Shown here: positions 1-46,643 of the stretch, piece after piece
How positions within the stretch are numbered: the first letter of the stretch is position 1
Layout of the letters: each line of letters opens with the position of its first letter
Source: a virus
DNA: 64,000 bases
Strand: one strand, 5' to 3'
Virus record (IMG/VR): IMGVR_UViG_3300009165_000006
Notes under the pieces: model-generated
Seen by the model: only the letters and a program-made list of their open reading frames with translations
What the model was told of the DNA's origin: nothing
The model's database searches: none
Made by a program: the position numbers and the translations under genes

Positions 1-1572
1 AAGATCAACTTCAGGAAGGGCAGGATTCGACGGTCTTACACAGCTCTCTATGCGAAGAGGGACTCTCGTAGGGTTAGGCAAGGTAAGCTAGCTCTACCCT
101 CTTACCGTCATCACATGATGCGATTGAACAGTAATGCCGAGAGTGCCATCCTGGCAGTGATTTTCTTCGGTAAGGATTGGGTAGTGTTCGATCTTCGGGG
201 TCTACTTCGAAACGTTCGATGGCGTAACTTGTTTGTTGATGGGTCAACCCCCAGCACCTTGCTCGGCATGTTCGGGGATCCAGTGATTGACCCCAAGCGT
301 GGAGTTGTGGCCTTCTGCTACAAGGAGCAGATAGTCCCAGTTGTTTCGAAGTCGATCACGAAGATGGTCAAAGCACCGGAGTTATTGAACAAGCTCTACC
401 TAAAAAGTGAGGATCCCTTAGTTCTAGTGGCTATAGATCTAGGTCAAACTAACCCTGTGGGGGTTGGAGTCTATCGAGTGATGAATGCTAGCCTCGACTA
501 TGAGGTTGTTACTCGGTTCGCCTTGGAGTCGGAACTACTCCGTGAAATTGAGTCCTACCGACAGAGAACGAATGCATTCGAGGCTCAGATCAGAGCTGAG
601 ACTTTTGATGCAATGACTTCAGAAGAACAAGAGGAGATTACCCGGGTTAGGGCGTTCTCAGCATCGAAGGCGAAGGAGAATGTGTGCCATCGATTCGGAA
701 TGCCTGTTGATGCCGTGGATTGGGCTACAATGGGATCAAATACCATTCACATAGCCAAATGGGTGATGCGTCACGGTGACCCAAGTTTAGTTGAGGTGCT
801 CGAGTACAGAAAAGACAACGAGATCAAGCTAGATAAGAATGGGGTACCCAAGAAAGTCAAGTTGACGGACAAGAGGATTGCCAACCTGACCAGTATTAGA
901 TTGAGGTTCTCCCAAGAGACCAGCAAGCATTACAACGATACGATGTGGGAGCTGAGACGTAAGCATCCGGTCTACCAGAAGTTGTCCAAGAGCAAGGCAG
1001 ACTTCTCTCGTCGAGTGGTGAACTCCATTATTAGGAGGGTCAATCACCTAGTTCCACGAGCGAGGATTGTATTTATCATCGAGGATCTGAAGAACCTCGG
1101 CAAAGTGTTTCATGGAAGTGGAAAACGCGAGCTCGGTTGGGATTCCTACTTTGAACCAAAGAGTGAAAACCGATGGTTCATCCAGGTGCTTCATAAGGCT
1201 TTCAGCGAGACTGGTAAGCATAAGGGGTACTACATCATAGAGTGTTGGCCAAACTGGACTAGCTGCACATGCCCTAAGTGCAGTTGCTGTGACTCTGAGA
1301 ATCGCCATGGTGAGGTATTCCGGTGCTTAGCCTGCGGATATACTTGCAATACGGATTTTGGTACAGCCCCAGACAACCTAGTCAAAATTGCTACTACAGG
1401 TAAGGGTCTGCCCGGGCCGAAAAAGAGATGCAAAGGGTCCAGTAAGGGGAAAAACCCTAAGATCGCTCGATCGAGCGAAACCGGTGTATCTGTTACCGAA
1501 TCAGGTGCACCAAAGGTCAAAAAGAGTAGCCCAACTCAAACGAGTCAGAGCTCCTCGCAATCTGCGCCCTAA
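1..1572 (+). CDS. Cas12/TnpB-family RuvC nuclease, candidate type V CRISPR effector (5' end lies outside window)
   Basis: Frame is open from nt 1 (no stop before the first ATG at 115), so >=523 aa. RuvC-I VLVAIDLG (D at nt 436-438), RuvC-II IVFIIEDLKNL (E at 1081-1083), CPKC...CLAC zinc finger, RuvC-III-like CNTDFGTAPDNLVKIA (D at 1354-1356). About 215-aa helical insertion between RuvC-I and RuvC-II. Lys-rich C-terminal tail. CRISPR array starts 33 nt downstream. Confidence 0.75.
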   Translation, partial: KINFRKGRIRRSYTALYAKRDSRRVRQGKLALPSYRHHMMRLNSNAESAILAVIFFGKDWVVFDLRGLLRNVRWRNLFVDGSTPSTLLGMFGDPVIDPKRGVVAFCYKEQIVPVVSKSITKMVKAPELLNKLYLKSEDPLVLVAIDLGQTNPVGVGVYRVMNASLDYEVVTRFALESELLREIESYRQRTNAFEAQIRAETFDAMTSEEQEEITRVRAFSASKAKENVCHRFGMPVDAVDWATMGSNTIHIAKWVMRHGDPSLVEVLEYRKDNEIKLDKNGVPKKVKLTDKRIANLTSIRLRFSQETSKHYNDTMWELRRKHPVYQKLSKSKADFSRRVVNSIIRRVNHLVPRARIVFIIEDLKNLGKVFHGSGKRELGWDSYFEPKSENRWFIQVLHKAFSETGKHKGYYIIECWPNWTSCTCPKCSCCDSENRHGEVFRCLACGYTCNTDFGTAPDNLVKIATTGKGLPGPKKRCKGSSKGKNPKIARSSETGVSVTESGAPKVKKSSPTQTSQSSSQSAP

Positions 1573-1604
1573 GTCACCTAGATCATTGATAACTCCAGGA
1601 GCTA

Positions 1605-1936
1605 GGATCCAATCCTTTTTGATTGCCCAATTCGTTGGGACTACCCCAAAAAGATCCACGAGGCCCGAGTGATCGACGGATCCAATCCTTTTTGATTGCC
1701 CAATTCGTTGGGACGATGACACTCTGGGTTCCCCAAGCCGGCCACGTTTTCCAAGGATCCAATCCTTTTTGATTGCCCAATTCGTTGGGACTAGGCACCT
1801 TCGGAGAGGTTCGACTGGGCAGCCTTGGATCCAATCCTTTTTGATTGCCCAATTCGTTGGGACATATCGCTTTGTCGGACGCTGAGTTCGAGATGATTAG
1901 GGATCCAACCCTTTTGATTGCCCAATTCGTTGGGAC
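1605..1936 (+). CRISPR. CRISPR array: 5 repeats (4 x 37 nt GGATCCAATCCTTTTTGATTGCCCAATTCGTTGGGAC plus a degenerate 36-nt terminal copy), 4 spacers (36, 40, 35, 37 nt)
   Basis: Repeats at 1605-1641, 1678-1714, 1755-1791, 1827-1863, 1901-1936. The first four are identical; the last has T->C and one fewer T. Spacers are unique and 35-40 nt. The 3' half of the repeat forms a CCCAA/UUCG/UUGGG hairpin. The degenerate repeat is distal to the nuclease gene, so transcription probably runs left to right. Confidence 0.9.
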
Positions 1937-2452
1937 CAGTCTTATTCCTCCTACGAGCATTACACGGTCCTCGAGAACGTGGCCCTCGGTCTGAGGTACC
2001 GAGGGATCCCAAAGAAAGAACGAGAAGCCAAAGCCATGGAGATGATCGTCAAGGTCGGTCTCGAGGGGCATGAGCACAAGTTCGCCAAGTACCCGGACCT
2101 CTCAGGCGGGCAACTCCAACGTGTAGCCATTGCTCGAAGCATCGCCTACGACAGCCGGATCCTCCTAATGGACGAACCCTTTGGAGCCCTTGACCTCGAG
2201 ACTCGTAGCCAGATGCAGGAGATGATCGCTCAATTGTGGTTGAGCATCACCCCTACCATCATCATGGTGACCCATGACATTTCGGAGGCGGTCTACTTGG
2301 GTGATACCATCTATGTGATGGGTAGAAACCCTGGAAACCTCAAGAGGAGTTTCATCTCGCCTTTGCCTCTTGAGCGGAACAAAAGTATGAAACGTAGCCC
2401 TGAATTCACTCGAACTGTTCAAGATATCGAAGACTACATGTCCTCGATATGA
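1937..2452 (+). pseudogene. 5'-truncated ABC transporter ATP-binding protein fragment (NitT/TauT-like: LSGGQ signature, Walker B ILLMDEPFGALD, H-loop VTHD); no Walker A
   Basis: The frame of ORF 1979-2452 is open back to 1937, immediately after the last CRISPR repeat (EHYTVLENVALGL...). N-terminal Walker A and Q-loop are absent. Confidence 0.8.
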
Positions 2453-2464
2453 CTCTTTGCTCAC
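2402..2464. repeat. copy A of a diverged direct repeat (3' end of the ABC-ATPase gene)
   Basis: gaattcactcgaactgttcaagatatcgaagactacatgtcctcgatatgactctttgctcac; about 80% identical to 3212-3274. Confidence 0.7.
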
Positions 2465-2484
2465 CGAGGAAACGGCAAGACGAT

Positions 2485-3015
2485 TCAGACTTTCCTTCTC
2501 AAGTATTCAATTCGCTCTTGCGTTTTTTGGAGCTCTTCAGGTGAGTACATGTCGAGGTTGACTCTGAGATTGGTTTCGAGAGCTTCCAACTCTCTGCGAG
2601 CCTGGTATTTGGCTTCCGCGGCACGACTTCTGGGTTTAATCAGATACTGGATTTTCCCTTTTAGCTTACGCTTAGCTACGATAGTACCGATAGGGGTTTC
2701 GGTACCAATAGGGATAGATCTAAGAGTAAACGTGGGTCCGAAGTCACTATCGAAACCATGTCCCTCGATTTTGGCGTTTTCCTCTTGGATGAAGCATCCA
2801 TCTTTCCAAGGTTTGTCTGCCTCATCCTTTGGGATCCGCTCTGGTTTGCCAGGTCTACCGCTCTTTGAGAAGTACTGAACCTCTACGGTAGAGTCCAGGT
2901 AGCGCTGTTTAACCTTTTGCGCTTCAGCGTGTTTGTAATCCGACTCCCACTGCTGGTAAACCTTTTTGAGGTTTACCGGGCCTTTTTGGAGTGGACCGGC
3001 TTCGATGGAGATCAA
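2485..3015 (-). CDS. hypothetical protein (176 aa), lies between the direct-repeat copies
   Basis: ORF track; no recognisable motif. Confidence 0.4.
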   Translation of the reverse strand: MISIEAGPLQKGPVNLKKVYQQWESDYKHAEAQKVKQRYLDSTVEVQYFSKSGRPGKPERIPKDEADKPWKDGCFIQEENAKIEGHGFDSDFGPTFTLRSIPIGTETPIGTIVAKRKLKGKIQYLIKPRSRAAEAKYQARRELEALETNLRVNLDMYSPEELQKTQERIEYLRRKV

Positions 3016-3211
3016 TCTTTGGATGCTTCCTGGGGCACCCTGTCCGAACTTCCCGTTATCATCAAACTCTGTATTCTCTAACTCCTATGAAAGTGGTCCA
3101 GTACTCACCTTGAGATGGGAGTGACTTAGCCTTGTCGACCAGAGCTTGGATAACTTCGCTTTTCACCTCCTAGTTGTAGTATAAGAACAAAAACTAGGTA
3201 CGTTCAAGGGC

Positions 3212-3274
3212 GAATTCACTCAAACTGTTCAAACCATCGAGGACTATGTGTCCTCGATGTAGTCCTTTGTTCAC
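3212..3274. repeat. copy B of the diverged direct repeat (non-coding remnant of the ABC-ATPase 3' end)
   Basis: gaattcactcaaactgttcaaaccatcgaggactatgtgtcctcgatgtagtcctttgttcac. Together with copy A it flanks minus-strand ORF 2485-3015. Confidence 0.7.
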
Positions 3275-3360
3275 ACATCGGAACGTTATCGAGAGCCACA
3301 GATCTTCAATCCAACTTTCAGTATGCCCCTTAGGCAAATTCTACTTATAATTGTTTCCGT

Positions 3361-4029
3361 TTGTCCTACTTAGAGGGACGGACACACTATAAGTCTAGAA
3401 AGGAAAGTATGGGACTAGCTCATTTGAACATTTGGGTCCGGAATCGAAACTGTGACCTACTAACCGATATGTGGCGTACTGATTTGGTCATTCAAGCCTG
3501 TACCGGCACGTACCTGGTTGACATTTGGCCGGAGATCTTAAGCCAATTGCAGACTCGGTATCCTACTTACACGATACTGAGTCACTTCTACCAAGGGGCT
3601 CAACGGATCATGATGATGCCGCCGTCAGGGACCTTCTTCAATCACATTGAGGTTGATATCCCTCCTGGCTGTTACAAGGTGTGGACTCGTTGCTGTCACG
3701 GACAGAACGAGGAGACCTCAGTTCAGTTGATCTCTCCACGATGCGGGGAGGAAGCTTGCGTGAATCTGTTGCTGCCGTCTCTCAAGGTATGTGCCCAACA
3801 GATTGTGCACCCGCTCATCGACCATATCGCTGTTCAGGGGGCCTTCCCGGCGGTGGCTGATAGGCTCGTCATTCTGAAAGGGGTGATGTACGCAGGGGAC
3901 ATTGGTCGAGCCCTTTTGCTTGAGCAGTTGCAGTACCGCTTGTCTGAGGCTGTGGCGAAGGGAGACACGGCTCTGCAGGCTCGTGTCAATGCCGTGATAG
4001 CTCTTGCCGATCAGCTTCCAGCTTGCTGA
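3361..4029 (+). CDS. hypothetical protein (222 aa)
   Basis: ORF track; no motif recognised. Confidence 0.35.
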   Translation: MSYLEGRTHYKSRKESMGLAHLNIWVRNRNCDLLTDMWRTDLVIQACTGTYLVDIWPEILSQLQTRYPTYTILSHFYQGAQRIMMMPPSGTFFNHIEVDIPPGCYKVWTRCCHGQNEETSVQLISPRCGEEACVNLLLPSLKVCAQQIVHPLIDHIAVQGAFPAVADRLVILKGVMYAGDIGRALLLEQLQYRLSEAVAKGDTALQARVNAVIALADQLPAC

Positions 4030-4281
4030 TAGTTTGCATCGGAATGTTGAAGGGGTCCCTCTGAGTGGGGTCCCCTTCGCATTTAACACGCTGGCTGTAC
4101 AGTGGTTCGGGACGATATCTCGGGGACTGCGAAGGAGCTACGGGAGTCAGCGGCATCATCTTTGAGCGAGTAGCCTCGATCTCGATCTCGACTGGTCATT
4201 GACTTTACCAGGTCAGAGAAAGCGTGCTACGGTGCGAAGACGTCAAGGGCCGAATATCCTGAACTCACCCTGTAAAACATC

Positions 4282-4569
4282 ATGATCGAAGTACATATTG
4301 ACTTAAACTTATTCGAGATCACTCGAACAGAGGGGGTTCCAGACAACCCTCACGAAAATATCTACTTGGAATTGATCTCTATCCTCTGGAGTGTCAAGGA
4401 ACAAGCTTCAAACTCCTTGGTACTTTTAGCCCTCGGCTCTTACCTGACTCAGAAGTACCCATCAATCCCATGGAAGGTCGTAGCCTTCGTTGACAATGTT
4501 GAGGTGAGTCGACTCGAGTTCCAAAGCTTGGATGAGAGTGCTCCAATCTCCCGCCTAAGATCCGGTTAG
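4282..4569 (+). CDS. hypothetical protein (95 aa)
   Basis: ORF track; followed by a hairpin at 4571-4598. Confidence 0.3.
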   Translation: MIEVHIDLNLFEITRTEGVPDNPHENIYLELISILWSVKEQASNSLVLLALGSYLTQKYPSIPWKVVAFVDNVEVSRLEFQSLDESAPISRLRSG

Positions 4570-4599
4570 GTCTAAACAGATCGGTGTATTTAGACCACT

Positions 4600-5082
4600 A
4601 TGCCAGAAAGTACCATTCCAACTCTCGCAGTACTCGAAGTTGTGGGTTTTGACCAATTCCGTGAGGTAGTAGCCGTCAAGGAATCAGGTTCAAATCGAGT
4701 AAAGTACCTCACCGCTGTGAGTGGTTCTCAGAAGTCATTCGTCGATGTTAGGACTAAGAATGGTCAGATCTTTCGACTTCCAGTAGATCAAGATAGCTAT
4801 GAAGCTATCTGCGAGGATACAATGTCCAACAAAGGTAGTCGTCAAATCAAGAACGTATCTGGGCACCCGCTTCCTAGCTCCTATGCGCGAGATCGAGCTA
4901 AGGAGTATCAAGAGAGGTATGGGTCTCTTGATTCTATCGACTTCAAACGAGCGTGGGCTGAGGCTCAGATGCTCGACTCCACACTACCCCCGAACCCTCC
5001 CAAATATGTCCCTGAGGAAGCTCAGAAGGCCATCACTCTACTGGCTCGGAGAATTCTCAAACTCGAATCGGAGTGGTCATGA
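4600..5082 (+). CDS. hypothetical protein (160 aa)
   Basis: ORF track. Confidence 0.4.
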   Translation: MPESTIPTLAVLEVVGFDQFREVVAVKESGSNRVKYLTAVSGSQKSFVDVRTKNGQIFRLPVDQDSYEAICEDTMSNKGSRQIKNVSGHPLPSSYARDRAKEYQERYGSLDSIDFKRAWAEAQMLDSTLPPNPPKYVPEEAQKAITLLARRILKLESEWS

Positions 5083-5127
5083 TAGAGACTGCGTGTACTT
5101 GAATGCCAAGTTTGGCCCAGGAAATTC

Positions 5128-5553
5128 ATGCTCCTCTCAAGCCCCCAACGTTTGACTTGGATTTACCTCGTGTTCCAGGATACTCCACCAACATGTGGGG
5201 AGTACGTCGACCCAAAGGGAATCCACTGGCATGTTCGAAACGTGATCCGGGAGCCTGGAGTTGTCCTGCGAGAACCAGCCCCACCGGCATGGTATGTCGA
5301 GATAGCTGCGGACCACCCAGCTTACCAGCTCGAACCCGGATGGGAGCTCCGAAGGTTCTTTAGGCCCGACGAGATTGCTCTTCACCGAGAGCACCTGACG
5401 AACAGCATTCGAAGGATGAGGATCCCAGGATTCGAGTTCGTTGGAGTCTCAGAGGATGAACTCACTCTCGTGGCCAACTTTCAAGGAGTCACTAAGGCTT
5501 CAGGAGTCCCTGATGAGATCGATGGAATGCCGGTTACCATCAATTTCAGGTGA
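5128..5553 (+). CDS. hypothetical protein (141 aa)
   Basis: ORF track. Confidence 0.35.
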   Translation: MLLSSPQRLTWIYLVFQDTPPTCGEYVDPKGIHWHVRNVIREPGVVLREPAPPAWYVEIAADHPAYQLEPGWELRRFFRPDEIALHREHLTNSIRRMRIPGFEFVGVSEDELTLVANFQGVTKASGVPDEIDGMPVTINFR

Positions 5554-5557
5554 AATC

Positions 5558-5797
5558 ATGAGCTGCAAGTACGAGATAACCATCCTACACCCCAAGTATC
5601 GTGATGATGTAATGGTGTGGAACACAGTATTTAGGTCCGATACATTAACATTGACTGTTCTCAAGCGAAAGATTGATATTGCTCATGAGCTTGGTTTACC
5701 GACGACTGCAGCATATAGTAAAGGTAGTCTAGGTACTGGGAAAATCGTTGAGATGTTTGGTGAGCCTCAGTTCTTCGAGGTGGTAAAGGTTTCCTAG
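5558..5797 (+). CDS. hypothetical protein (79 aa; MSCKYEITILHPKYRDD...)
   Basis: ATG 4 nt after the stop of the upstream ORF; C-terminal part of track ORF 5441-5797. Confidence 0.3.
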   Translation: MSCKYEITILHPKYRDDVMVWNTVFRSDTLTLTVLKRKIDIAHELGLPTTAAYSKGSLGTGKIVEMFGEPQFFEVVKVS

Positions 5798-5825
5798 GTT
5801 ATACAAGCGTCCGGATCTGTCAGCT

Positions 5826-6221
5826 CTACGGTAATACGCTCTGGGGGACTTTAGAGGTATCGTTACGCACCTCCCAGGATACCTCTCCCTCGTCTAACCA
5901 CTTGTAGAAGACCTGGCCTCTTCCGACTTGGTTTCGAACAAGATTTGGCTCACCAAGGTGCACCAAGGCCAAGCAATCATCGGGTACCCCTCTGGACATA
6001 TAGATCTTGGCTCCACGGAAGGTTCCCATGAATCCGATCTTCAGCGAAGCAGGATTCGATTCGGACTCAATCGTGTAGATGTCTCTTCCCCATTTGCGGA
6101 TGTCAGCATATGTACAAGGAGACACCCAGACGTATTCAATCTCAGGAGTTAGCATTCCTCCGAGGATATCAGGAGTTAGCACGTAGGCTCGTTTGACTTC
6201 TTCTCTTTCGATGATGACCAT
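5826..6221 (-). CDS. hypothetical protein (131 aa)
   Basis: ORF track. Confidence 0.35.
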   Translation of the reverse strand: MVIIEREEVKRAYVLTPDILGGMLTPEIEYVWVSPCTYADIRKWGRDIYTIESESNPASLKIGFMGTFRGAKIYMSRGVPDDCLALVHLGEPNLVRNQVGRGQVFYKWLDEGEVSWEVRNDTSKVPQSVLP

Positions 6222-6273
6222 AAGTAGTACCTACACTGATTCAGATGACCCGTTCACAATAATGGCAAGGGCA

Positions 6274-6870
6274 TCACTTCCGTTCTCCAGGTTGACCACA
6301 GACTAAGCACTCATCGGGACATCGATCCTCATCATGATTGTACAAACAACTTCGAGTTGGACTCTTGACGCACTTATGAGTGCCTTCAACTAAGACTGTA
6401 CCTTCAGGCAAACCAAGCTGCTCAGCAGCATACTTCATCAAGTCCGCGTGTACAGATTCGTACCTCGAGAGGGCTTCTTTGAAGTTCTCCCAGGTTCTCC
6501 GACTCTCCCAGTAGACCTCAGGGAGCCGAGATTCTCCCCCCAAGAGGTCGATGGCATAGAGGATCTCTCGGCGAACTCTCTTGTTGATCCTAAGGTTCTG
6601 GCAATCTATTTCGTCCAAAGCCTCAATCAGTGCAGCCTCAGTAGCCCCTACAGGTTTTCTCCCGAGTCGGACAACGGGTATCCCTTTGTCAGCAAAGACT
6701 TTGGCCACGTCCTCACTGATGGTGAATGAGCGGATGACTCGTGGGGCTCCCTCAGGGTACTCTGCACGAAGGCGCCAGTTGGTCTCTTGATTCGGGACTG
6801 GTGGGATGAGGTAGATCATAAAAGTAGGCTGAGTGCTCAATAACCCTTGGCACCAGAGAGCATACACCAA
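6274..6870 (-). CDS. hypothetical protein (198 aa)
   Basis: ORF track. Confidence 0.35.
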   Translation of the reverse strand: MVYALWCQGLLSTQPTFMIYLIPPVPNQETNWRLRAEYPEGAPRVIRSFTISEDVAKVFADKGIPVVRLGRKPVGATEAALIEALDEIDCQNLRINKRVRREILYAIDLLGGESRLPEVYWESRRTWENFKEALSRYESVHADLMKYAAEQLGLPEGTVLVEGTHKCVKSPTRSCLYNHDEDRCPDECLVCGQPGERK

Positions 6871-7297
6871 GAACTTGCTGTTTCCTAGTCATTCAAGTAC
6901 ATTCCGGGGCATGCCAGAATTCAGTGCCGGAGATATTGTTCGAGTAGTCCGTCAGCCAGAGCACCTGATTGTTCAGGTCGTGGGTAAAGTCGGGTTCCTT
7001 ACTAGCTTGACCGCAACCCATGCTGAGTTTACAGGTTTGAATTTAGATGGGTCCTACTCAGGGGGCATTACAACCCAACTTGATTGCCTGGAGCCTGAGA
7101 CCTCCCCTCAGTGGGTTGAAGCCAAAAGGCTTCGAGATGAGGCTTTCAAAAAGACCATAGCCGAGAGTATAGCTCGTGCTGAAAGATACAATGCCAGGAT
7201 GTTCGAACTGTCGGTCAAGTACGGAATCTCGGTGGAGCATGTGAAGGCATTGTTTTCTGACCTAACGTACCTCAATCGTCAGGGTTGGTGGCCGTAA
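6833..7297 (+). CDS. hypothetical protein (154 aa)
   Basis: ORF track. Confidence 0.35.
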   Translation: MLNNPWHQRAYTKNLLFPSHSSTFRGMPEFSAGDIVRVVRQPEHLIVQVVGKVGFLTSLTATHAEFTGLNLDGSYSGGITTQLDCLEPETSPQWVEAKRLRDEAFKKTIAESIARAERYNARMFELSVKYGISVEHVKALFSDLTYLNRQGWWP

Positions 7298-7392
7298 GTT
7301 CAGATTTTCAGTTGAACATCAGACCGCTTGTACGTAATAGGAGTTGGCCTGACCAGGTTTTGAGCAAAGCTCAGTCATTCGAGGAGAAGAGT

Positions 7393-7737
7393 ATGAGGAA
7401 TCGAGTATCGCGTGGGTTTACCGTTATAGAGGTGATCATCTGCGTGGCTCTGCTTGGGGTTTTCGCGGTCTTAATTGGGATGCAAGTCATCACGTGGTCA
7501 TCATCTCAGGGCTTGGCCGAAGAAGAAGCCCGAAACTACGCCGCGAAGATGGATAGGACTCTCAAGGGCGTCTCCTGTATGAACCGTGACATAGACGGGG
7601 ATGGTTACGTCTCGTGTACTCTCAACGTGGTCGAGAAAGACGGCTCCCTCTCCCGGGTTCCGATCGAATGCGCGGCCAAATGGACCTACAACAACGAAGG
7701 TTGCAAGGAAGCCTTCGTGAATGTGCTACGAAAGTAA
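7393..7737 (+). CDS. type IV pilin / pseudopilin-like protein with prepilin-type N-terminal signal
   Basis: MRNRVSRG|FTVIEVIICVALLGVFAVLIG: basic leader, G-1/F+1/E+5 prepilin-peptidase site, hydrophobic helix. GAGGAG SD 3 nt upstream of ATG 7393. Confidence 0.75.
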   Translation: MRNRVSRGFTVIEVIICVALLGVFAVLIGMQVITWSSSQGLAEEEARNYAAKMDRTLKGVSCMNRDIDGDGYVSCTLNVVEKDGSLSRVPIECAAKWTYNNEGCKEAFVNVLRK

Positions 7738-7740
7738 CCC

Positions 7741-8190
7741 ATGGTCGTCAAGTTGGGTTCGGAAAGTGGGTTTGACCTCATCCAAGTACCGGTTTCACGT
7801 CTTTCTGAGATGTGTGACGTTACTCACGGGATAACCCCATGGGGTTATCCGATAAACCCCGAAGAGATTCGGGAAGCTGTAAGTGCCGGTCGAGTAGCGC
7901 CTAAACCCAGAAGGGGATTCCCCGGGTGGCCTACAGAGAGGAAGCGGCAGTATCACATCAAACGCGTGGCCTACTTGGTAATGAACGGATGGTATGATCC
8001 GATTGAGATCGACGTAGGGGTACCAAGCCTGAATTGTTACATTGACTGGCCTATCGTGGACGGAAATCACAGGTTCTATGCGTCTATCGTCCGAGAAGAT
8101 CCTTTCATTCTAGCGGTAATCAGCGGTGAGCTTGACTATGCTGAGGAGGTTCTTGGAGTTAAGTCAAGGGCGACATTGTCGCCCTTGTAG
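7741..8190 (+). CDS. hypothetical protein with possible ParB/Srx-fold motif (IVDGNHRFYA)
   Basis: ORF track; motif resemblance only. Confidence 0.3.
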   Translation: MVVKLGSESGFDLIQVPVSRLSEMCDVTHGITPWGYPINPEEIREAVSAGRVAPKPRRGFPGWPTERKRQYHIKRVAYLVMNGWYDPIEIDVGVPSLNCYIDWPIVDGNHRFYASIVREDPFILAVISGELDYAEEVLGVKSRATLSPL

Positions 8191-8287: not shown

Positions 8288-9223
8288 ATGGCAAGCAACA
8301 TCAACTACAAGCAACTTCGGGATGGCACGTGGGGAGTTCAGGGGCGCAATCTTGTGACAGGCCGGACCGTGACGGTCACGAAGAAATCTGGTGAGACCAA
8401 GCAAGAAATAGTGGGAGAGATTGTTTGGAAAGGTACTGACGGCTTCTGCTACGCTAGAATTGCCGAACAGGGTGTTTCCTCTAAGTCTTCGACCCGTAGC
8501 AGCTCTACTCGAGGTAGTTCTACTCGTACCACTTCTACCCGGCGAAGCAGCCGGAAAAGCGGTAAGAAAGAGGGCGCCCAAGAGGGCAAATACTCATCAT
8601 CCCGCGAGGGCGATACGGGGGACGAGATCGGGAGAGTCTGCTTCCTCCGTGCGGGTGGAAACCGCATTCCAGTTGTTGTAGTGGGGTGGCAGACGGGCTA
8701 CTGTAGTGAAGATGGTCTCTCCTTTGGGTTACCAATGGATGATGGGTACTACACGGTTTCGTATTACAGAGACGCAACCGAGGAAGAGGCTACTGCACTT
8801 GCCTCCAAGGAAGCTGCTGCGAAGGCTGCGAAGGACTCAGCGGCCCAACAGGCCAAGGATGCTCGGATGGCAGCGGAGACGGCTGCTCGGGCACCTCTCG
8901 CAGGCCTTACGCGAAGTGATAGCTTGAGCACCCCTGCAGGTACCAAGACCTCGGTTGGTACCTACAAGAGTGAGCACGGGTGGGACATTAGCATCACCCG
9001 GGTCGAGATGGGTGATGCTAATGTGGTCTACATCGAGAGTGCCTACGGCTTCGACGACAGCCGAGAGTACCTCTGGGGCACTCCCGAGGTTCTTGCCACC
9101 CTCTACGAAGCCAGACTTGCTGAGCGTTCAATCAGCAAAGAAGAGGCTCAAGAGTACTTGTCCAAGTACTCGGGTTGCTATGGAGCAGACATCTACAAGT
9201 ACGTAGTCGCGCGAGGTGAGTGA
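8288..9223 (+). CDS. hypothetical protein (311 aa) with Ser/Thr/Arg-rich low-complexity segment
   Basis: ORF track; SSKSSTRSSSTRGSSTRTTSTRRSSRK run; promoter-like motif upstream. Confidence 0.45.
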   Translation: MASNINYKQLRDGTWGVQGRNLVTGRTVTVTKKSGETKQEIVGEIVWKGTDGFCYARIAEQGVSSKSSTRSSSTRGSSTRTTSTRRSSRKSGKKEGAQEGKYSSSREGDTGDEIGRVCFLRAGGNRIPVVVVGWQTGYCSEDGLSFGLPMDDGYYTVSYYRDATEEEATALASKEAAAKAAKDSAAQQAKDARMAAETAARAPLAGLTRSDSLSTPAGTKTSVGTYKSEHGWDISITRVEMGDANVVYIESAYGFDDSREYLWGTPEVLATLYEARLAERSISKEEAQEYLSKYSGCYGADIYKYVVARGE

Positions 9224-16598: not shown

Positions 16599-17345
16599 AT
16601 GCCTCAGCTAACAATTGAACAGCAAATCCGATATGAGCGTCACGTTAGGCTGCCTGAAGTCAAGGAAGCTGGGCAGATCAAACTGCTTCAGAGCAAGGTC
16701 CTGCTCATAGGGGCGGGCGGGTTAGGATCCCCAGTAGCGCTCTACTTAGCCGCCGCAGGGGTCGGTACCTTGGGGGTCGTGGACTTTGATTCGGTTAGCC
16801 TCTCGAACCTCCAGAGGCAGATCATCCACTCCACCGTCGGAAAACTCAAGGTCCCAAGTGTCACAGAGGCGGTGACCCGGTTGACCCCTGACGTATCCAC
16901 CGTTGAGTATGTCGGTCGCGTGGATGCCTCGACCATAGATCAGATCTTCGAGATTGGTTGGCACGTGGTCATTGACGCCGTGGATAACCTGGAAACTCGG
17001 TACCTCATCAACGAAGCTTGCGTAAAACGTAAGCTCCCATGGATCCACGGGGCCGTTTTCTCGTATGAGGGTCAAGTGACAACCTTCACCCGGGGCGGCC
17101 CCTGCTATCGATGCCTCTATCCAGATGTGCCCCCCAAAGGGGCTGACAAGCCCGGTGGCGTCCTTGGAGTTGTCCCAGGCGTGATAGGTACTATCCAAGC
17201 AACAGAGGCGCTCAAGGTCATCCTGGGGCTCGGACAGACGTTGGAAGGGACGATGCTCAACTACAACGCTCTCTACATGTCCTTCGACCGAATGCCGCTT
17301 GGAGCTCGCAACCCAAACTGCTCAGTTTGCTCGATGACTTACTGA
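16599..17345 (+). CDS. ThiF/MoeB-family E1-like adenylyltransferase
   Basis: LLIGAGGLGSPVALYLAAAGVG (GxGxxG), DFDSVSLSNLQRQ, and C-terminal CYRC...CSVC zinc motif. About 248 aa, MoeB-like size. Confidence 0.85.
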   Translation: MPQLTIEQQIRYERHVRLPEVKEAGQIKLLQSKVLLIGAGGLGSPVALYLAAAGVGTLGVVDFDSVSLSNLQRQIIHSTVGKLKVPSVTEAVTRLTPDVSTVEYVGRVDASTIDQIFEIGWHVVIDAVDNLETRYLINEACVKRKLPWIHGAVFSYEGQVTTFTRGGPCYRCLYPDVPPKGADKPGGVLGVVPGVIGTIQATEALKVILGLGQTLEGTMLNYNALYMSFDRMPLGARNPNCSVCSMTY

Positions 17346-18554: not shown

Positions 18555-19220
18555 TTGGGAATCAGGTCCAGATCAGCATGGGATCTGGATCGTGGGGGTT
18601 TGGCCTTTGTAGAACGAGCCTACACGGGCATAGATCTCGATGGGCAAGATCCAAGCTATTTGATTGAGCAGACGTGCTTGCTTATCGCCGGCAAGGATTA
18701 CGATAGAAACATACCTAGACTTGAAGCTTGGAGGGTTCGTCTCGAAGAAGAAAGGCGCGAGAGGAAAGCCAAGCGTGATAGTGTTGAAGCAAAAGCTCGA
18801 GCTATCCTAATGGCCCATCTCGATGAAACCCAAGTGTCTGAGTTCGAATCCTCTGGATCCTTCCACGTCCTTGGTGCCGATGGTTACACCTATCTCATCA
18901 CCTCCAGGGAACAACACAATGTGTTTCGAATCGAGGAGGGACGTCGAACCTTCGAGTACTGCATCGTGACAAGGGATTTCGTACCCCTTCAGGATCAGAT
19001 GCTGACTCAAATGCTTCTCTTGACGACCCATCCTGCGATGTTTCATCAAATCGCGAACACCTGGGAAATTAGAGAAGATGGGACCCGCATCCGCATAGCA
19101 GGGCGACTAGTTGACGTTCTTGAGAACCCAGCCGCCCAAGTCGGCTGGGTTCTCAAATCTCCTTACCGGCAAGTATCTCTCTGTACATCGGGCCTAGCAC
19201 TTTTGAGACACTCCCCTTGA
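18555..19220 (+). CDS. hypothetical protein (221 aa; start uncertain)
   Basis: ORF track; overlaps ORF 18265-18612. Confidence 0.3.
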   Translation: MGIRSRSAWDLDRGGLAFVERAYTGIDLDGQDPSYLIEQTCLLIAGKDYDRNIPRLEAWRVRLEEERRERKAKRDSVEAKARAILMAHLDETQVSEFESSGSFHVLGADGYTYLITSREQHNVFRIEEGRRTFEYCIVTRDFVPLQDQMLTQMLLLTTHPAMFHQIANTWEIREDGTRIRIAGRLVDVLENPAAQVGWVLKSPYRQVSLCTSGLALLRHSP

Positions 19221-20094
19221 TGCTCTGCTCGGTAGCCCCGAGTTCGGTCATCTCCCGTTGGCAATCCTTGGCCAGGTCTGCGCAAACCGTGGTCAAGATC
19301 AATGGCATGTCCTTCATGGTATGGGTTAATTCAACCCCTCGGTCGTTAAGGCGTCCGACGGCGTTGATGACTCGCCCCTTCGTGACGTACTTGACGATGA
19401 AGTCATCAATCGGAGAAGGACCCCTTGGAGTTTTCTCTTTGGCGGCGGATGCAACTTCAGCGAACTTGGCGCATTTATGCTTACAGATTAGCCAGTTTCC
19501 AAACACGTTTCGGAGAAGAGGATTCGATCGGATGACCACCCCCTCAGCGATGTTGTCATCCCCAAAACCATTGATCTTCCCAACCGTGCTGGGTTTTTCT
19601 AAGAGCGCATCGAAGTTTGCCTGAGTCGGCTCCCCTCGCCACACCTCGGGTATTACAGGTAGCTCCATCTTGGAGCAAAGCTCGATGAACAGGTCGTAGG
19701 TGACAAAGTTCTTGGCCACCATGATGTCGAAGGCTCTGAAAAGAGGCTCCTGACCACTTGAGTATTGAACTCCCTTGGTTTTGATGCCGGGACCGTGAGC
19801 TTCACCAAAAACGGTGACTTCAGAGAACCCGTAGGACTTGATGACCTCCATCATCCTTGTTAGAAGGTCCTTCTGGGCTTTGAACTTGTTAAGCATGCTC
19901 CCGAGCGGGAAGTTCTGCCCAAGTTGATATTCGACGTCACGTGAACCATAACCAATCTCTTCGATGCTTTTCATCCCGAGTGGGAAAAAGAGACGAAAAT
20001 TCGAACCGTGGATTTTCTCGAGGGCAACTACTTCCCTGACAGAAAAGATCTCTGGGCAGTCGGAGAGTTGAACGATTGAAGGGTACTTTTCCAT
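19153..20094 (-). CDS. Rnl2-family RNA ligase (ATP-dependent nucleotidyltransferase)
   Basis: Motif I EKIHGSN (lysine adenylylation site, cf. KIHGTN of T4 Rnl2), motif III VTVFGEAHG, motif IV AEGVVIRS, motif V WLICKHKCAKF. 313 aa. Confidence 0.75.
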   Translation of the reverse strand: MEKYPSIVQLSDCPEIFSVREVVALEKIHGSNFRLFFPLGMKSIEEIGYGSRDVEYQLGQNFPLGSMLNKFKAQKDLLTRMMEVIKSYGFSEVTVFGEAHGPGIKTKGVQYSSGQEPLFRAFDIMVAKNFVTYDLFIELCSKMELPVIPEVWRGEPTQANFDALLEKPSTVGKINGFGDDNIAEGVVIRSNPLLRNVFGNWLICKHKCAKFAEVASAAKEKTPRGPSPIDDFIVKYVTKGRVINAVGRLNDRGVELTHTMKDMPLILTTVCADLAKDCQREMTELGATEQSIKGSVSKVLGPMYREILAGKEI

Positions 20095-20931: not shown

Positions 20932-21561
20932 ATGTTCTTCTGGTTCGGATTGGCCCCTTGGATCTGGGGGTTTGAATTTGTACTGTTTGTAGGGCTTATT
21001 GTGCTAGTCGAATTCGAGTTCTACAAGTGGTCCACCGCAACCCTCATAGGAGCTCTCGTACTGAGTCACTTCCTGCATGCGTTCTCAGTAGTGGATCTAG
21101 TAAGGCATAACCCTGGAACCTCCTTTATCGTAGTCCTGAGCTATTTCCCTGCGGGCACCATATGGGCAACCTTCAAGTGGTTCTTGTTCCTCTATCGGTT
21201 CAAGGACGCCAGGATGGATGCCTTGGATGAGTTCCATGATATTCAGGAAGCGGCTCGAGCTCGAATCGCTTCGGGTGCTGTCTACACAATGGATGAGGAG
21301 TTGGTCAATAAGACGGATTACCAGTATTTGCGTAGCCAATACTTCAAGAAGACCAACCTTTCGAAGATCCCACGTGTCCGTGACTACAAGAGGAAGGTTA
21401 TCGGTTGGATTGCGTTCTGCGTGTTTTCGATAGTTGGCACTATCTTCCACGACCTGGTTCGTAGGATCGCACTCTGGATCTACAATCGAGTCAGCAGTTT
21501 CCTTCAGTGGATGTCAAATCGGATTATCTCCGAGGTGGAAGAAATACCTGAAAAGACCTAG
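20932..21561 (+). CDS. integral membrane protein (209 aa)
   Basis: Several hydrophobic helices (FFWFGLAPWIWGFEFVLFVGLIVLV; IGWIAFCVFSIVGTIF). Confidence 0.45.
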   Translation: MFFWFGLAPWIWGFEFVLFVGLIVLVEFEFYKWSTATLIGALVLSHFLHAFSVVDLVRHNPGTSFIVVLSYFPAGTIWATFKWFLFLYRFKDARMDALDEFHDIQEAARARIASGAVYTMDEELVNKTDYQYLRSQYFKKTNLSKIPRVRDYKRKVIGWIAFCVFSIVGTIFHDLVRRIALWIYNRVSSFLQWMSNRIISEVEEIPEKT

Positions 21562-22451
21562 TGAACCAAGGTTCGCTCGAAGGCCTCGTTGTTGAGCACA
21601 ATCATGATGGAGGGTGGATCCGGAGCGTTCGCTTGACGAGTTGACTCATCGTACTCGTGGCAACCCCACTCACCCTTCTCCATGTAAGGTTGAACTCTTA
21701 CCCATGTTCCGATACTTGGATCAATGGCTGCAGCAGCCGCTATTGTGTCGTGAAGGGCCTTCCCCTCTGGGCGCTTTTTGAAGTAAAAAGCCATCCCTTC
21801 CTTGATGAGGTCAAGCCCAGCATGGGCTCCGGAAGGGATTCTCTCATTGACCATAGGACCCCAGAAGACACCGTGACAAACGTTCTTGGAAACCATCCGT
21901 CGAGTCCAGATAGGTGAGTTTTTACCCAGTAAACCGAGGGCTGCTTTCGAGTCGCCCCCAAGGTTGAAGGTCGGACAGGTGAGCTTGCCGGCGAACTTGG
22001 GTAGCCGGTGTTCGGGTGGGACGATGTTGTCTCCGGCGAAGCCACCCTGGCAAGTCCACGTACGGAAAAACGGCCACACCTCACTGCTAGCCTTCCAGAT
22101 GTTGGTGAGGGCCGCTCCAGTGATTAGGTGGGTGGTTGGAAAGTCCAGTAGTACCTGCTTAATGACCTCAGTGGCGCTTCCCTGGGGCTGACAGGGGGAG
22201 ATCTTCCCAAGCCAATCATAGTGGAACTGGGACACCTTAGAAGTTTGCTTCTTGAGGCTCCCAATTCCGATAGGCACGTCCGTCCGCCCAAGACGATCGA
22301 GGACATGACGAACTATCCCGACCTGGTCGAAACCTCCTGGATGGATCGTAGCCCCAACGAGTTTGGCTCGGGGATGAGTAGCAAGGAGCGCTAGAGTGAA
22401 CACGTCATCTGGGTCACTCGTTTCCATGTCGAACAGATATTCTTGAGTCAC
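21558..22451 (-). CDS. nucleoside hydrolase-like protein (IU-NH/RihA fold candidate)
   Basis: N-terminal DMETSDPDDVFTLALL resembles the DxDxxxDD aspartate cluster of nucleoside hydrolases. GTG start. Divergent from the ADP-ribosylglycohydrolase gene. Confidence 0.4.
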   Translation of the reverse strand: MTQEYLFDMETSDPDDVFTLALLATHPRAKLVGATIHPGGFDQVGIVRHVLDRLGRTDVPIGIGSLKKQTSKVSQFHYDWLGKISPCQPQGSATEVIKQVLLDFPTTHLITGAALTNIWKASSEVWPFFRTWTCQGGFAGDNIVPPEHRLPKFAGKLTCPTFNLGGDSKAALGLLGKNSPIWTRRMVSKNVCHGVFWGPMVNERIPSGAHAGLDLIKEGMAFYFKKRPEGKALHDTIAAAAAIDPSIGTWVRVQPYMEKGEWGCHEYDESTRQANAPDPPSIMIVLNNEAFERTLVH

Positions 22452-22514
22452 TTGAAATCAATCTCAGGTTATAGGAGTGGCTGCCACCTAAATTTCGATG
22501 GTGTATCAGCTACC

Positions 22515-23456
22515 ATGCCCTCTTCGTTGAGTAAAGCCCAAGCTTGTCTGCTGTGTCATGTGGTCGGAGACTCCCTTGGGAGCCTCGTAGAGTTCGAGTC
22601 CGAGGAGACCATCCTTCAGGAGCACCAAGGAGAAAAAGTGCGCTACCTCGCTGATGGGGGCACCTGGGAGACCTTGGCGGGGCAAGGCACAGACGATTCC
22701 GAAATGGCCATCACCCTAGCTAGGACTCTCATTCACCATGGTTTTTACAGCTCAACCATTATGCGGAGTATGTATTGCTATTGGCTCAATAGCCAACCAT
22801 TTGACGTTGGCAGGACCACTCAAAATGGACTCCTGGATATGCCTGACTTCCACAGCCAAGCCAATGGGGCTTTGATGCGTGTCGCCCCCTTGGGGATCTT
22901 TGGAGCGAAGAAGAAGGACTGGAGAAAGACCATGATCTGGGCGATGGAGGATGCCCTTATTACGCACCCAAATCAAATATGCTTACAAATCAATGCACTT
23001 TATGTATCGATGATCGATCAAGCAATCGGAAGTGATGCAAGCCCAGATCAACTCTACGGTGCGCTGGCCGCAACAGCAGTGGATATGGAAGCCCATCCAG
23101 TTATCCTCGAAGCTATCGACCGAGCTAGAACTGCCCCACCGGAAAACTACATGGTGAATATGGGTTGGGTTGTCCTCGCTTTCCAGAATGCGCTCTATCA
23201 ACTACTACACGCCCCGTCATTGACTGAAGGAATTGTCGATACCGTCAATCGCGGAGGTGATACCGATACCAACGGAGCAATTGCCGGTGCTCTGCTTGGG
23301 GCTGTTTACGGGATGGAGCAAGTCCCCAAGGATTGGATCGATGGAGTAACCCAATGTTGCCCATCGGTGACCAACCCCTACTCTAGAAAGCCACGTACAG
23401 GCTTCTTTTGGACTAATGATGTGCTAGAAGTAGCCAAAAAACTACTTGATAGTTGA
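22515..23456 (+). CDS. ADP-ribosylglycohydrolase (DraG/ARH family)
   Basis: GDSLG, GQGTDDSEM, GALMRVAPLG and GGDTDTNGAIAGALLGA motifs. In-frame ATG within track ORF 22443-23456. Confidence 0.8.
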   Translation: MPSSLSKAQACLLCHVVGDSLGSLVEFESEETILQEHQGEKVRYLADGGTWETLAGQGTDDSEMAITLARTLIHHGFYSSTIMRSMYCYWLNSQPFDVGRTTQNGLLDMPDFHSQANGALMRVAPLGIFGAKKKDWRKTMIWAMEDALITHPNQICLQINALYVSMIDQAIGSDASPDQLYGALAATAVDMEAHPVILEAIDRARTAPPENYMVNMGWVVLAFQNALYQLLHAPSLTEGIVDTVNRGGDTDTNGAIAGALLGAVYGMEQVPKDWIDGVTQCCPSVTNPYSRKPRTGFFWTNDVLEVAKKLLDS

Positions 23457-45398: not shown

Positions 45399-46643
45399 TC
45401 ATAGGAGAACTCCGATGTTCACTTCCTGCTTCAACGAGACATGACTCGTAGGCCGAAGGGTTCTCCTTCGTTCCGCCGCTAGAGGACTCTCCACAGGCTT
45501 TTTAGCGCCGAAGGCGCCTAGGTTCCTCGGGAACTCCGAGTACCTTTCCAAATTCTTCGCCGCATTCTCATCTCGATCATGAATAGCTCCACATCCTTCA
45601 CAAACCCACTCTCTCACAGAAAGAGCCAGCTGCGGCCGTTTAAGGCCGCAGCTGGTACATATCTTCGAGGATGGGAACCATCGATCAGCTACTTCTAGCT
45701 TAGATCCATACCAAGTGGTCTTGTAGGAAAGTAGCCTCTTACTTTCAAACCACCCTTGGTCCAAGATCGACCGAGAAAGGTGAGGATTCTTACTCATTCC
45801 ACGAATACCAAGGTCTTCCACAACGATGGCTGACTTGGTTTTCGCCAGCCCCGTTGTGAACTTATGAAGGAAATCCCTTCGAACGTTTGCTACTCGTGAG
45901 TGAATCCTCGCTAATCTTTGAGCTGATTTCCTCCTATTTGACGAACCCTTACGCTTCCTCGAATGAGAGCGTTGAGCCCTTCTTAACCGACTTAACGCTT
46001 GTTTCAATGGATTCGGGGCATGTATCTTCGTACAGGCCCCGTCCGAAGAGACCGTAGCGAAAGTAAGAATCCCTAGATCTACCCCAGCTTTTGGTCCTTG
46101 GATAGGAATAGGATCCGTCACGACCTCAACGGTATTGACGGATACGAACCATCGATCTGCTACCCTCGAAATCGTAGCTGAAAGGATCTCCCCACTAATC
46201 CTGCCGTTGATCTTCTCTTTGGTTCGAATAGTCCCAAGCCTAGGGAGCTTAATATACCTAGTTTGTGGCTCAATTGAACCATAGAGACGGAAGGAATCCT
46301 TTGATTTATGCTTCTTTTTGAACTTTGGGAAGCCAACTCCTTCTGATCTTCTGGACCAGAAAGCTTTGAAAGCTTTGTCAAGATCACGAAGAGCTTCCTG
46401 AGGGGCACACTTGGAAACCTCGTACATCCAAGGGAAGTCAGGGCCCTTGCGGGCGTTGAGGTCCCGATGTTCAGCGATGGCGTTGGTGAACTTCTCCTTA
46501 CCTTCTTGGGTTCGGAAGCGTTCGATCCTCCTTTGGAGGGACCAATTCCAAGCGAAGCGAGCCGTTCCGGCATGCTTCGCCAAGAACGTCCGAACCCGAT
46601 TGTTCGGATCTAACTCGAACTTATACGCCTTCCGAAGTTCCAT
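45399..46643 (-). CDS. tnpB: TnpB (IS605 OrfB-family RNA-guided RuvC nuclease)
   Basis: N-terminal MELRKAYKFELDPNNRVRTFLAKHAGTARFAWN (OrfB HTH), RuvC-I KAGVDLGI, RuvC-II AIVVEDLGIRGM, zinc finger CTSCG...CEGCG, RuvC-III IHDRDENAAKNL. 414 aa. Confidence 0.9.
   Translation of the reverse strand: MELRKAYKFELDPNNRVRTFLAKHAGTARFAWNWSLQRRIERFRTQEGKEKFTNAIAEHRDLNARKGPDFPWMYEVSKCAPQEALRDLDKAFKAFWSRRSEGVGFPKFKKKHKSKDSFRLYGSIEPQTRYIKLPRLGTIRTKEKINGRISGEILSATISRVADRWFVSVNTVEVVTDPIPIQGPKAGVDLGILTFATVSSDGACTKIHAPNPLKQALSRLRRAQRSHSRKRKGSSNRRKSAQRLARIHSRVANVRRDFLHKFTTGLAKTKSAIVVEDLGIRGMSKNPHLSRSILDQGWFESKRLLSYKTTWYGSKLEVADRWFPSSKICTSCGLKRPQLALSVREWVCEGCGAIHDRDENAAKNLERYSEFPRNLGAFGAKKPVESPLAAERRRTLRPTSHVSLKQEVNIGVLL

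Follow-up and report, generated by a model that had tools for sequence, protein, structure and literature searches.

A phage-type system named CRISPR-CasΦ, built on CRISPR (short palindromic repeats that are clustered and regularly interspaced), was reportedly described in 2020. The effector of this system, CasΦ or Cas12j (type V-J), works with CRISPR RNA (crRNA) only, which is processed by the RuvC domain of the nuclease (PMC11127173; PMC8298400). The protospacer adjacent motif (PAM) of Cas12j is given as TBN, and CasΦ1-3 are reported to cleave the precursor crRNA (PMC9943656). Here, we describe a CRISPR array and the adjoining effector gene in a stretch of viral DNA of 64,000 nucleotides (nt) (IMG/VR virus record IMGVR_UViG_3300009165_000006), which is referred to as the window; coordinates are positions in the window unless a related locus (L0xx) is named. 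As judged from sequence comparison, the array is very probably a type V-J (CasΦ/Cas12j) array that yields crRNAs with a 5' handle from the plus strand. The kind of system is already known, namely a miniature, self-processing nuclease with 5'-handle crRNAs that needs no trans-activating crRNA (tracrRNA).

Five direct repeats were found within 1605-1936, comprising four identical 37-mers (GGATCCAATCCTTTTTGATTGCCCAATTCGTTGGGAC) and one degenerate copy of 36 nt (Table 1). The repeats start 73, 77, 72 and 73 nt apart, and the four spacers between them are mutually unrelated in sequence. The last copy carries a T-to-C change at repeat position 9 and has lost one T from a T-run; both changes lie in its 5' half, leaving the 3' 23 nt unaltered. 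The changes in this copy are exactly those that an earlier note on this DNA, made from the letters alone, had described. This pattern is not attributable to chance, and the element is a real CRISPR array with four spacers. An Rfam search of 1300-2200 returned nothing meaningful, megablast of positions 1-2500 against phage records gave no match, and full-text literature searches with the repeat and with peptides of the protein found no paper.

Table 1. Positions in the window of the array, its leader, the effector gene with its conserved residues, and neighbouring genes.
Feature	Position	Strand	Description
casΦ/cas12j, 3' part	1-1572	+	residues 271-793 of a 793-aa protein; open at window start
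Arg codon R340	208-210	+	= Cas12j3 R338; RGLLRN aligns with RGLYRN of 7ODF; invariant in 36 homologues
RuvC-I Asp D416	436-438	+	LVAIDLGQTNP; aligns with CasΦ-2 D394; invariant in 36 homologues
RuvC-II Glu E631	1081-1083	+	IIEDL; invariant in 36 homologues
Zinc-ribbon CxxC...CxxC (C694, C697, C712, C715)	1270-1335	+	invariant in 36 homologues; TNB hit
RuvC-III Asp D722	1354-1356	+	NTDFGTA; invariant in 36 homologues
Leader motif CTCGCAA(T)	1554-1561 (core 1554-1560)	+	inside casΦ coding sequence (...TCC TCG CAA TCT GCG CCC TAA), 51 nt upstream of R1
Intergenic leader part	1573-1604	+	32 nt; weakly conserved (A/T)TCATTGA / TTGAnn box, TTGATA at 1586-1591
Repeat R1	1605-1641	+	37 nt; handle core 1619-1641; hairpin 1626-1630 paired with 1635-1639
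Spacer 1	1642-1677	+	36 nt
Repeat R2	1678-1714	+	identical 37-mer
Spacer 2	1715-1754	+	40 nt
Repeat R3	1755-1791	+	identical 37-mer
Spacer 3	1792-1826	+	35 nt
Repeat R4	1827-1863	+	identical 37-mer
Spacer 4	1864-1900	+	37 nt
Repeat R5 (terminal, degenerate)	1901-1936	+	36 nt; handle intact
ABC-ATPase ORF, N-terminally truncated	1937-2452	+	ABC_tran profile 71-136 of 137; Q-loop to C-terminus, no Walker A
Accessory gene cluster	16599-17345, 19153-20094, 21558-23456, 54241-55701, 58123-59478		huge-phage-typical

The gene directly upstream of the array encodes a CasΦ/Cas12j homologue. Its stop codon is at 1570-1572, which confirms the gap of 32 nt (1573-1604) before the first repeat that the earlier note had given. 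The 523 amino acids (aa) encoded in the window match the C-terminal part of a protein of 793 aa (P0001) at 100% identity; this protein is found only in Joint Genome Institute (JGI) and Logan data, as 'hypothetical protein'. The 5' part of the gene and the region upstream were recovered on a Logan contig (L001), in which casΦ occupies 2145-4526 and the part missing from the window 2145-2954. Over about 470 residues, the fragment matched the Protein Data Bank (PDB) entries of CasΦ-2 (7LYS, 1.4e-91), Cas12j3 (7ODF, 1.5e-90) and Cas12j-SF05 (8IEW, 9e-87), and the alignment with CasΦ-2 ran from fragment residues 42-514 to residues 290-756. PDB matches to TnpB and Cas12f were confined to the zinc ribbon (about 1e-7), where Pfam placed a Cas12f1-like_TNB domain, and no Cas12a chain was among the PDB matches.

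When conservation was scored in an alignment of 36 homologues, the D-E-D triad of the RuvC domain, the four zinc-ribbon cysteines and the arginine that corresponds to R338 of Cas12j3 were all invariant (Table 1). In Cas12j3 this arginine, called "strictly conserved", clamps the handle of the crRNA at C-1 and U-18 (PMC8298400). The effector thus has the features of type V-J, namely homology beyond the RuvC core, the triad, the zinc-ribbon cysteines, the handle arginine and a compact size (793 aa; ~700-800 aa in type V-J). It is only ~40% identical to the characterised orthologues and appears to be a CasΦ orthologue distinct from CasΦ-2, Cas12j3 and Cas12j-SF05, the three with which it was compared.

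The 3' end of every repeat reads GAUUG-CCCAA-UUCG-UUGGG-AC. It contains the 5-bp stem CCCAA/UUGGG, the UUCG loop and the AC tail to which the earlier note had drawn attention, and the hairpin was present in the minimum free energy structure of a single repeat (RNAfold). The closing pair of the UUCG loop is A-U, unlike in the extra-stable C(UUCG)G context. We fetched 17 related loci from IMG/VR and JGI metagenomes, 14 of which bear arrays. Thirteen further CasΦ loci have repeats of 36 nt that end in (G/A)AU(U/G)G, a 5-nt stem strand, a 4-nt loop, the second stem strand and AC. Across the related repeats, loop positions 1 (U) and 4 (G) were at least 90% conserved, and the tail past the stem was 2 nt (AC) in all 14 arrays. 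The stem itself varied among the loci (CCCAA, CUCGG, CGCUC, CUCGA, CUCCC, CUCAG, CUCCU and CUCUC) with pairing maintained: 97.1% of the cells for the 5-bp stem were paired, 21 cells had changed on both sides, and none of 500 shuffles equalled this covariation. In a slid control, in which the 3' partner was shifted sideways, at most 51% were paired.

In Cas6 systems, the crRNA takes its 5' handle from an 8-nt tail of the repeat. The hairpin with a tail of ~8 nt that characterizes Cas6-processed class 1 repeats was not seen here, the tail being 2 nt in each of the 14 arrays. The wording of the earlier note on Cas6-type repeats, '8-nt 3' handles', was imprecise, but its conclusion was unaffected.

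The same 3' end recurs where the rest of the repeat does not. The locus of the closest orthologue (L022, 61% identity) has a single repeat, the 3' 23 nt of which are identical to those of the window repeat and the 5' half of which is unrelated; likewise, a solo unit upstream of casΦ in L001 has the same 3' 23 nt and an unrelated 5' half. Because these two elements retain only that part, they mark the 3' 23 nt as the likely functional unit of the repeat, with a 5' half that would be dispensable. In the Cas12j3 structure, the crRNA consists of a 26-nt handle (UAUUGAUUGCCCAGUACGCGUGGGAC) and then a 20-nt guide (supplement of PMC8298400); the layout of handle and then guide is the same, and the sequence nearly the same, as at the 3' end of the window repeat. 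The handle contacts described for Cas12j3, namely C-1, the non-canonical A-2·G-17 pair and U-18 (PMC8298400), map one-to-one onto GAUUGCCCAAUUCGUUGGGAC of the window. By analogy, the G preceding the stem and the A following it would lengthen the 5-bp stem by a non-canonical pair. The repeat is not the published CasΦ-3 repeat, an identity that we rejected since the Cas12j3 handle is similar and not identical and the protein is a different orthologue.

Searches for the handle elsewhere were largely negative. It was absent from IMG/VR, and a generic search of the 64-kb window for further handle-like hairpins with a GAUUG prefix found none. In GTDB genomes, a 21-nt handle occurred once each in two metagenome-assembled genomes of rumen Bacteroidales (L019 5594-5614 and L020 263-283). 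We dismissed these as one chance event unrelated to CRISPR, as both lie inside the same conserved coding gene (...AHPNAGLPNSLGLYDQTPE...; ...PNAGLPNSLGLYDQ...).

The arrangement of the related loci bears on the orientation of the array. In 12 of the 14 loci the array directly follows the effector gene on the same strand; the other two have it upstream, L004 on the effector's strand and L013 on the opposite one. The array is thus on the effector's strand in 13 of 14. Degenerate repeats were always 3'-distal, in the window as well as in L003, L004, L011, L014 and L016, which bears out the proposal in the earlier note that the mutated last repeat marks the trailer end. No anti-repeat (a complement of at least 10 nt to the repeat) was detected in window positions 1-8000 or in L001, and the one 10-mer complement in L021, a JGI contig of 120 kb, is compatible with chance; the locus therefore agrees with the tracrRNA-free organization of type V-J. 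The locus does not resemble type V-A, since it has no Cas12a effector and its handle differs from the UCUACU-loop-UAGAU repeat end. The assignment to a Cas12-type array, which the earlier note had made from the repeats, agrees with the identity of the adjoining gene and with its conserved catalytic and handle-binding residues. Further, the layout of the Cas12j3 crRNA, the matching contacts and the covarying hairpin at the 3' end support the repeat-derived 5' handle on the plus strand that had been predicted with it.

We then considered the region between the effector gene and the first repeat. Across the family, the distances from the stop codon to the first repeat were -5, 7, 23, 32, 32, 32, 55, 62, 91 and 188 nt, and a tiny gap is a family trait. 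When the upstream sequences of the 14 loci were anchored on repeat 1, 12 of them showed a motif, C-N2-CTCGCAA(A/T), that starts 51 or 52 nt ahead of that repeat. Its 8-mers are within one mismatch of CTCGCAAA (CTCGCAAA/T in most loci), with the one-base variants CTCGCAAG in L014 and CTCGCAGA in L017; near-matches are present in the remaining two loci (CTCGCGAT in L008 and CTCGCATT in L006). The motif lies inside the coding sequence, in differing reading frames, in the window, L002, L007, L008, L014 and L016; it is intergenic in L003, L011, L012 and L017; and it is also kept in L004 and L013, whose arrays do not follow casΦ. Its position is thus fixed relative to the repeat and not to the gene, independent of the side or strand of the array. 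Nearer to the repeat are a conserved TA at -34/-33 and a looser (A/T)TCATTGA / TTGAnn box. These results agree with the claim of the earlier note that the leader lies within or next to the 3' end of the nuclease gene.

The motif was not enriched elsewhere in the 64-kb window (10 found versus 7.9 expected). Because of this, and because it does not covary with the repeat stem, CTCGCAA is probably a DNA or RNA element specific to the CRISPR leader. Other origins of the motif were rejected. It is not a degenerate 'repeat 0' or a partner of the handle, as CTCGCAA is constant while the stems vary (CCCAA, CTCGG, CGCTC and others) and as no covariation links its variable eighth base to the handle GAUUG/AAUUG. 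Nor is it a conserved C-terminal peptide, given that the frames differ among the loci or the motif is non-coding.

Targets of the spacers were sought in several collections. The whole array gave only chance matches, to the repeats, against 50,697 GenBank phage records; the first 22 nt of each of spacers 1-4 had no match in IMG/VR; and no target was found in the window or L001 with up to four mismatches. A second genome (L021) shares all four spacers and the degenerate terminal repeat with the window. Among 19 of the 22 open reading frames (ORFs) of at least 230 aa in the window, a set that leaves out Cas2- and Cas4-sized ORFs, none matched a Cas family, including Cas1, and the precomputed Pfam marks of L021 include no Cas family.

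Several of these results weigh against the type V-J, plus-strand assignment or qualify it. Since the spacers are unchanged in the second genome and adaptation genes were not seen, there is no sign of ongoing spacer uptake. As no protospacer was found for any spacer, the PAM side gave no independent evidence of orientation, and the strand, the crRNA ends and the promoter are read from the sequence. Folding, which the earlier note had proposed as a check, returned the hairpin in the single repeat, but its energy was not beyond that of shuffles (z = -0.57 for a single repeat and -1.41 for the whole array); the hairpin is therefore established by covariation across the 14 related arrays and not by energy. 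The N-terminal 270 residues of the effector lie outside the window and are known only from L001 and L021, and, given the ~40% identity, the processing site and the PAM may differ from those of the characterised orthologues. In one rival reading, the array would be read from the minus strand, or would belong to a Cas6- or tracrRNA-dependent system, and its crRNAs would carry a 3' repeat part. The reverse complement of the repeat folds too and begins with GTC, as many class 1 repeats do, and nothing further speaks for it; with a CasΦ effector, a conserved and covarying element that closes the repeat on the strand of the effector, at its 3' end, a degenerate repeat at the plus-strand distal end, no anti-repeat and a post-hairpin tail of 2 nt and not 8, we consider it extremely unlikely. 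It is also quite improbable that the array is an inert relic carried along with casΦ, with obsolete spacers and neither adaptation nor interference. The four spacers, none of which has a detectable target, the identity of the array in two genomes, the lack of Cas1 among ORFs of at least 230 aa and the visibly decayed locus of the closest orthologue (L022), with its truncated gene and single repeat, are what a relic might leave. However, four repeats are perfectly identical, the fifth has an intact handle, and all catalytic residues of the effector are intact. Further, the block of casΦ and array is 99.6-100% identical between the two genomes while its flanks differ by 5-11%, which points to recent spread or selection rather than decay, and compact arrays without adaptation genes are the norm for huge phages, almost all of whose CRISPR systems are so described (PMC7162821).

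How a type V-J array in this position would be transcribed is a separate matter. The array may have no promoter of its own and be co-transcribed with casΦ, so that CasΦ would cut crRNAs from the 3' end of its own mRNA; we hold this tentatively, at somewhat less than an even chance. In several loci the gap between the stop codon and the first repeat is too short for a separate promoter, no terminator-like site lies on the plus strand between gene and array, and a simple scan found no sigma-70-like site on either strand of 1000-2600. The same kind of scan found none on the plus strand upstream of casΦ either, and it may not fit the host or phage in question. In contrast, the arrays of L004 (upstream) and L013 (opposite strand) need promoters of their own yet retain the motif at -51/-52, and transcription could thus start within the conserved leader. 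That the leader (CTCGCAA at -51, TA at -34 and the TTGAnn box) is the array's own promoter, overlapping the end of the coding sequence as the earlier note had suggested, is possible but doubtful. The motif keeps its distance from repeat 1 in 12 of 14 loci wherever the stop codon lies, in the window falling within the coding sequence at 1554-1560, and a weak, sub-threshold sigma-70-like pair, TTGATA(1586-1591)-N16-TCCAAT(1608-1613), would start transcription just before the handle of the first repeat. However, the motif is unlike a -35/-10 pair of sigma-70 at proper spacing, its lack of enrichment in the window speaks against a general phage promoter, and L004 has a better pair, TTGACT...TACACC, ~50 nt further upstream of the motif. 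Further, the mini-arrays of handle-only units described below, which need transcription but not spacer uptake, do without the motif, and that of L003 uses TTGACT-N17-TACAAT. The absence of the motif from mini-arrays with ordinary promoters hints that the leader motif serves regulation or the integration of spacers rather than transcription. In type I systems, leader motifs roughly this far upstream serve integrase recognition, which is a lead only.

For the type V-J array read from the plus strand, the following course of events is proposed. The array would be transcribed in the same direction as casΦ, either because transcription of casΦ continues into it or because a transcript begins in the leader or within the final ~60 nt of the gene. 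CasΦ would bind the 3' part of each repeat, that is, GAUUG, the 5-bp stem, the UNNG tetraloop, the return stem and AC, and its single RuvC site would cut the precursor upstream of the handle, with no need of a tracrRNA or Cas6. The mature crRNA would consist of a 5' handle of ~23-26 nt (...UUGAUUGCCCAAUUCGUUGGGAC) and a guide of ~18-20 nt from the downstream spacer, and the complex would cut double-stranded DNA of competing mobile elements flanked by a T-rich PAM on the 5' side. Self-processing by RuvC, the length of the handle, the PAM and DNA cleavage are all inferred from the homologues.

Some related loci contain handle-only units outside regular arrays. In L003, five such units (3652-3873) stand just before casΦ, behind a TTGACT-N17-TACAAT sigma-70-like promoter. 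An adjacent ORF of 249 aa (targets 2857-3581) is matched by all five guides, by two over their full length (32/32 and 26/26) and by three only over the PAM-proximal 14-18 nt, and a TBN motif precedes four of the five sites. One of these targets is also kept, flanked by TCG, in distant homologues of the ORF on five other IMG/VR contigs (L023 and L026-L029). Partial PAM-proximal complementarity is described as a hallmark of CreR-type regulatory guides in types I and V-A (10.1101/2023.03.03.530964; 10.1101/2023.03.10.532045), and these two preprints on repeat-like elements do not mention type V-J. The guides of L003 are self-targeting, and the resident genome would have to escape cleavage at the two sites that they match in full. 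In L011 (14-70, 3839-3892 on the minus strand, 7458-7474 and 8347-8363), there are handle-only units with spacers of 19 and 16 nt, one pair being divergent from casΦ, and two near-complete solo repeats that stand immediately before ORF starts downstream of the array; no targets were found within this 10-kb locus. L022 (4700-6410) has a decayed look, with a frameshifted N-terminal part and a called gene of 420 aa; two copies of the leader motif are followed by the single repeat with its identical 23-nt handle, and there are no spacers.

The solo unit of L001 (2014-2036), which lies ~940 nt upstream of window position 1, is identical to the repeat 3' end in 23 of 23 positions. A 104-aa ORF stops 3 nt before it, the casΦ ATG lies 109 nt further on, and the unit is followed by a 35-nt pseudo-spacer (AGCAGAGCGCTCC) and then by four copies of TTTCC. 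The best match of the pseudo-spacer in L001, with the guide itself excluded, was 9/12, had no PAM context and was within chance. A CreR-like target of the solo handle was sought in the upstream region of casΦ and rejected, as no PAM-flanked partial target was found. The solo handle is absent from the near-identical locus L021, and it is no more likely to be a regulator than a recombination scar.

The near-identity of the two genomes is confined to a block. Window positions 1-1941 together with L001 2071-2954 are 99.6-100% identical to L021 5928-8751; the block begins 74 nt before the casΦ ATG and runs up to the last bases of the terminal repeat, and the first downstream mismatch is at 1942. 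The right flank is 89-95% identical, whereas on the left L021 has unrelated DNA in place of L001 694-2070, a stretch that includes the solo handle. This suggests that the cassette of casΦ and array was recently transferred, exchanged or swept between phages. At its right end, an ABC-ATPase ORF begins exactly where the last repeat ends; it is not part of the CRISPR system. This ORF differs from its counterpart in L021 at 32 codons synonymously and at 5 non-synonymously, and purifying selection is therefore acting on it. The 3' end of the ABC-ATPase gene has left a second remnant (63 nt, 79% identical) 810 nt downstream, at 3212-3274. Insertion of the cassette into an intact ABC-ATPase gene was rejected, as no N-terminal ABC half was found at the left boundary.

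These side observations could be combined into one picture. The leader motif would be a signal specific to type V-J that is retained even where it lies inside the coding sequence of the nuclease, handle-only units would guide CasΦ to genes of the phage itself or of related phages, and casΦ and the array would form a mobile or sweeping cassette bounded by repeat-derived units, with the solo handle on the left (L001) and the terminal repeat on the right (1936) as its proposed bounds. The solo handle would then be a regulatory or recombination element and not debris. Taken as a whole, we regard this picture as unlikely.

The carrier is most likely a huge-phage genome. Related casΦ loci are on IMG/VR contigs of 125-529 kb, and the window contains accessory genes of the huge-phage type (ThiF, RNA ligase, nucleoside hydrolase, ADP-ribosylglycohydrolase, radical SAM and tRNA nucleotidyltransferase; Table 1); Thg1 is also part of this huge-phage-typical gene content. 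No capsid or terminase gene was identified in the 64-kb window and no tRNA genes were found in it. An IS605-family TnpB of 414 aa (45399-46643, minus strand), with HTH_OrfB_IS605, OrfB_IS605 and TNB domains, is encoded in the same window as the TnpB-derived CasΦ. An ORF of 850 aa (30749-33301) has a hit to a major-vault-protein 'shoulder' domain (PF11978, 3e-9) and is otherwise unannotated.

In practical terms, the locus provides a further divergent orthologue with its cognate handle (UUGAUUGCCCAAUUCGUUGGGAC), and thus a candidate compact genome editor. If it holds true, a leader motif at a fixed distance that overlaps the effector coding sequence bears on how arrays without cas1 and cas2 are transcribed or extended. 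Handle-only, crRNA-like units in type V-J loci, and a block of casΦ and array that is near-identical in two phages with diverged flanks, would, if true, matter to specialists.

Compared with known systems, the solo unit of L001 is similar to the solitary repeats and CreR elements upstream of cas12a, as reported in the preprints of Shmakov et al. (10.1101/2023.03.03.530964) and Liu et al. (10.1101/2023.03.10.532045), in that it consists of the 23-nt handle part, as in the CreR of Moraxella; unlike CreR, it has no PAM-flanked partial target upstream of casΦ, and it is missing from L021. The array shares with that of Cas12a (type V-A) a hairpin at the 3' end of the repeat and a tail of 1-2 nt, and would share self-processing, a 5' handle and a T-rich 5' PAM (PMC9943656). 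In contrast, Cas12a belongs to another protein family, has another handle and processes its crRNA at a dedicated site in the WED domain, whereas Cas12j uses RuvC (PMC11127173). The closest likeness is to CasΦ/Cas12j of type V-J (7LYS/7LYT/7M5O, 7ODF and 8IEW), with which the locus has in common a homologous effector with a single RuvC site, a zinc ribbon and a handle-binding arginine, a repeat of 36-37 nt with a GAUUGC-hairpin-AC 3' end, spacers of 35-40 nt and an array adjoining the effector gene, as well as a tracrRNA-free organization. No adaptation genes were seen among its larger ORFs. Within type V-J, the system of the window differs from the characterised members in its ~40% identity to them, in its own stem, CCCAA/UUGGG, and in its 37-nt repeat.

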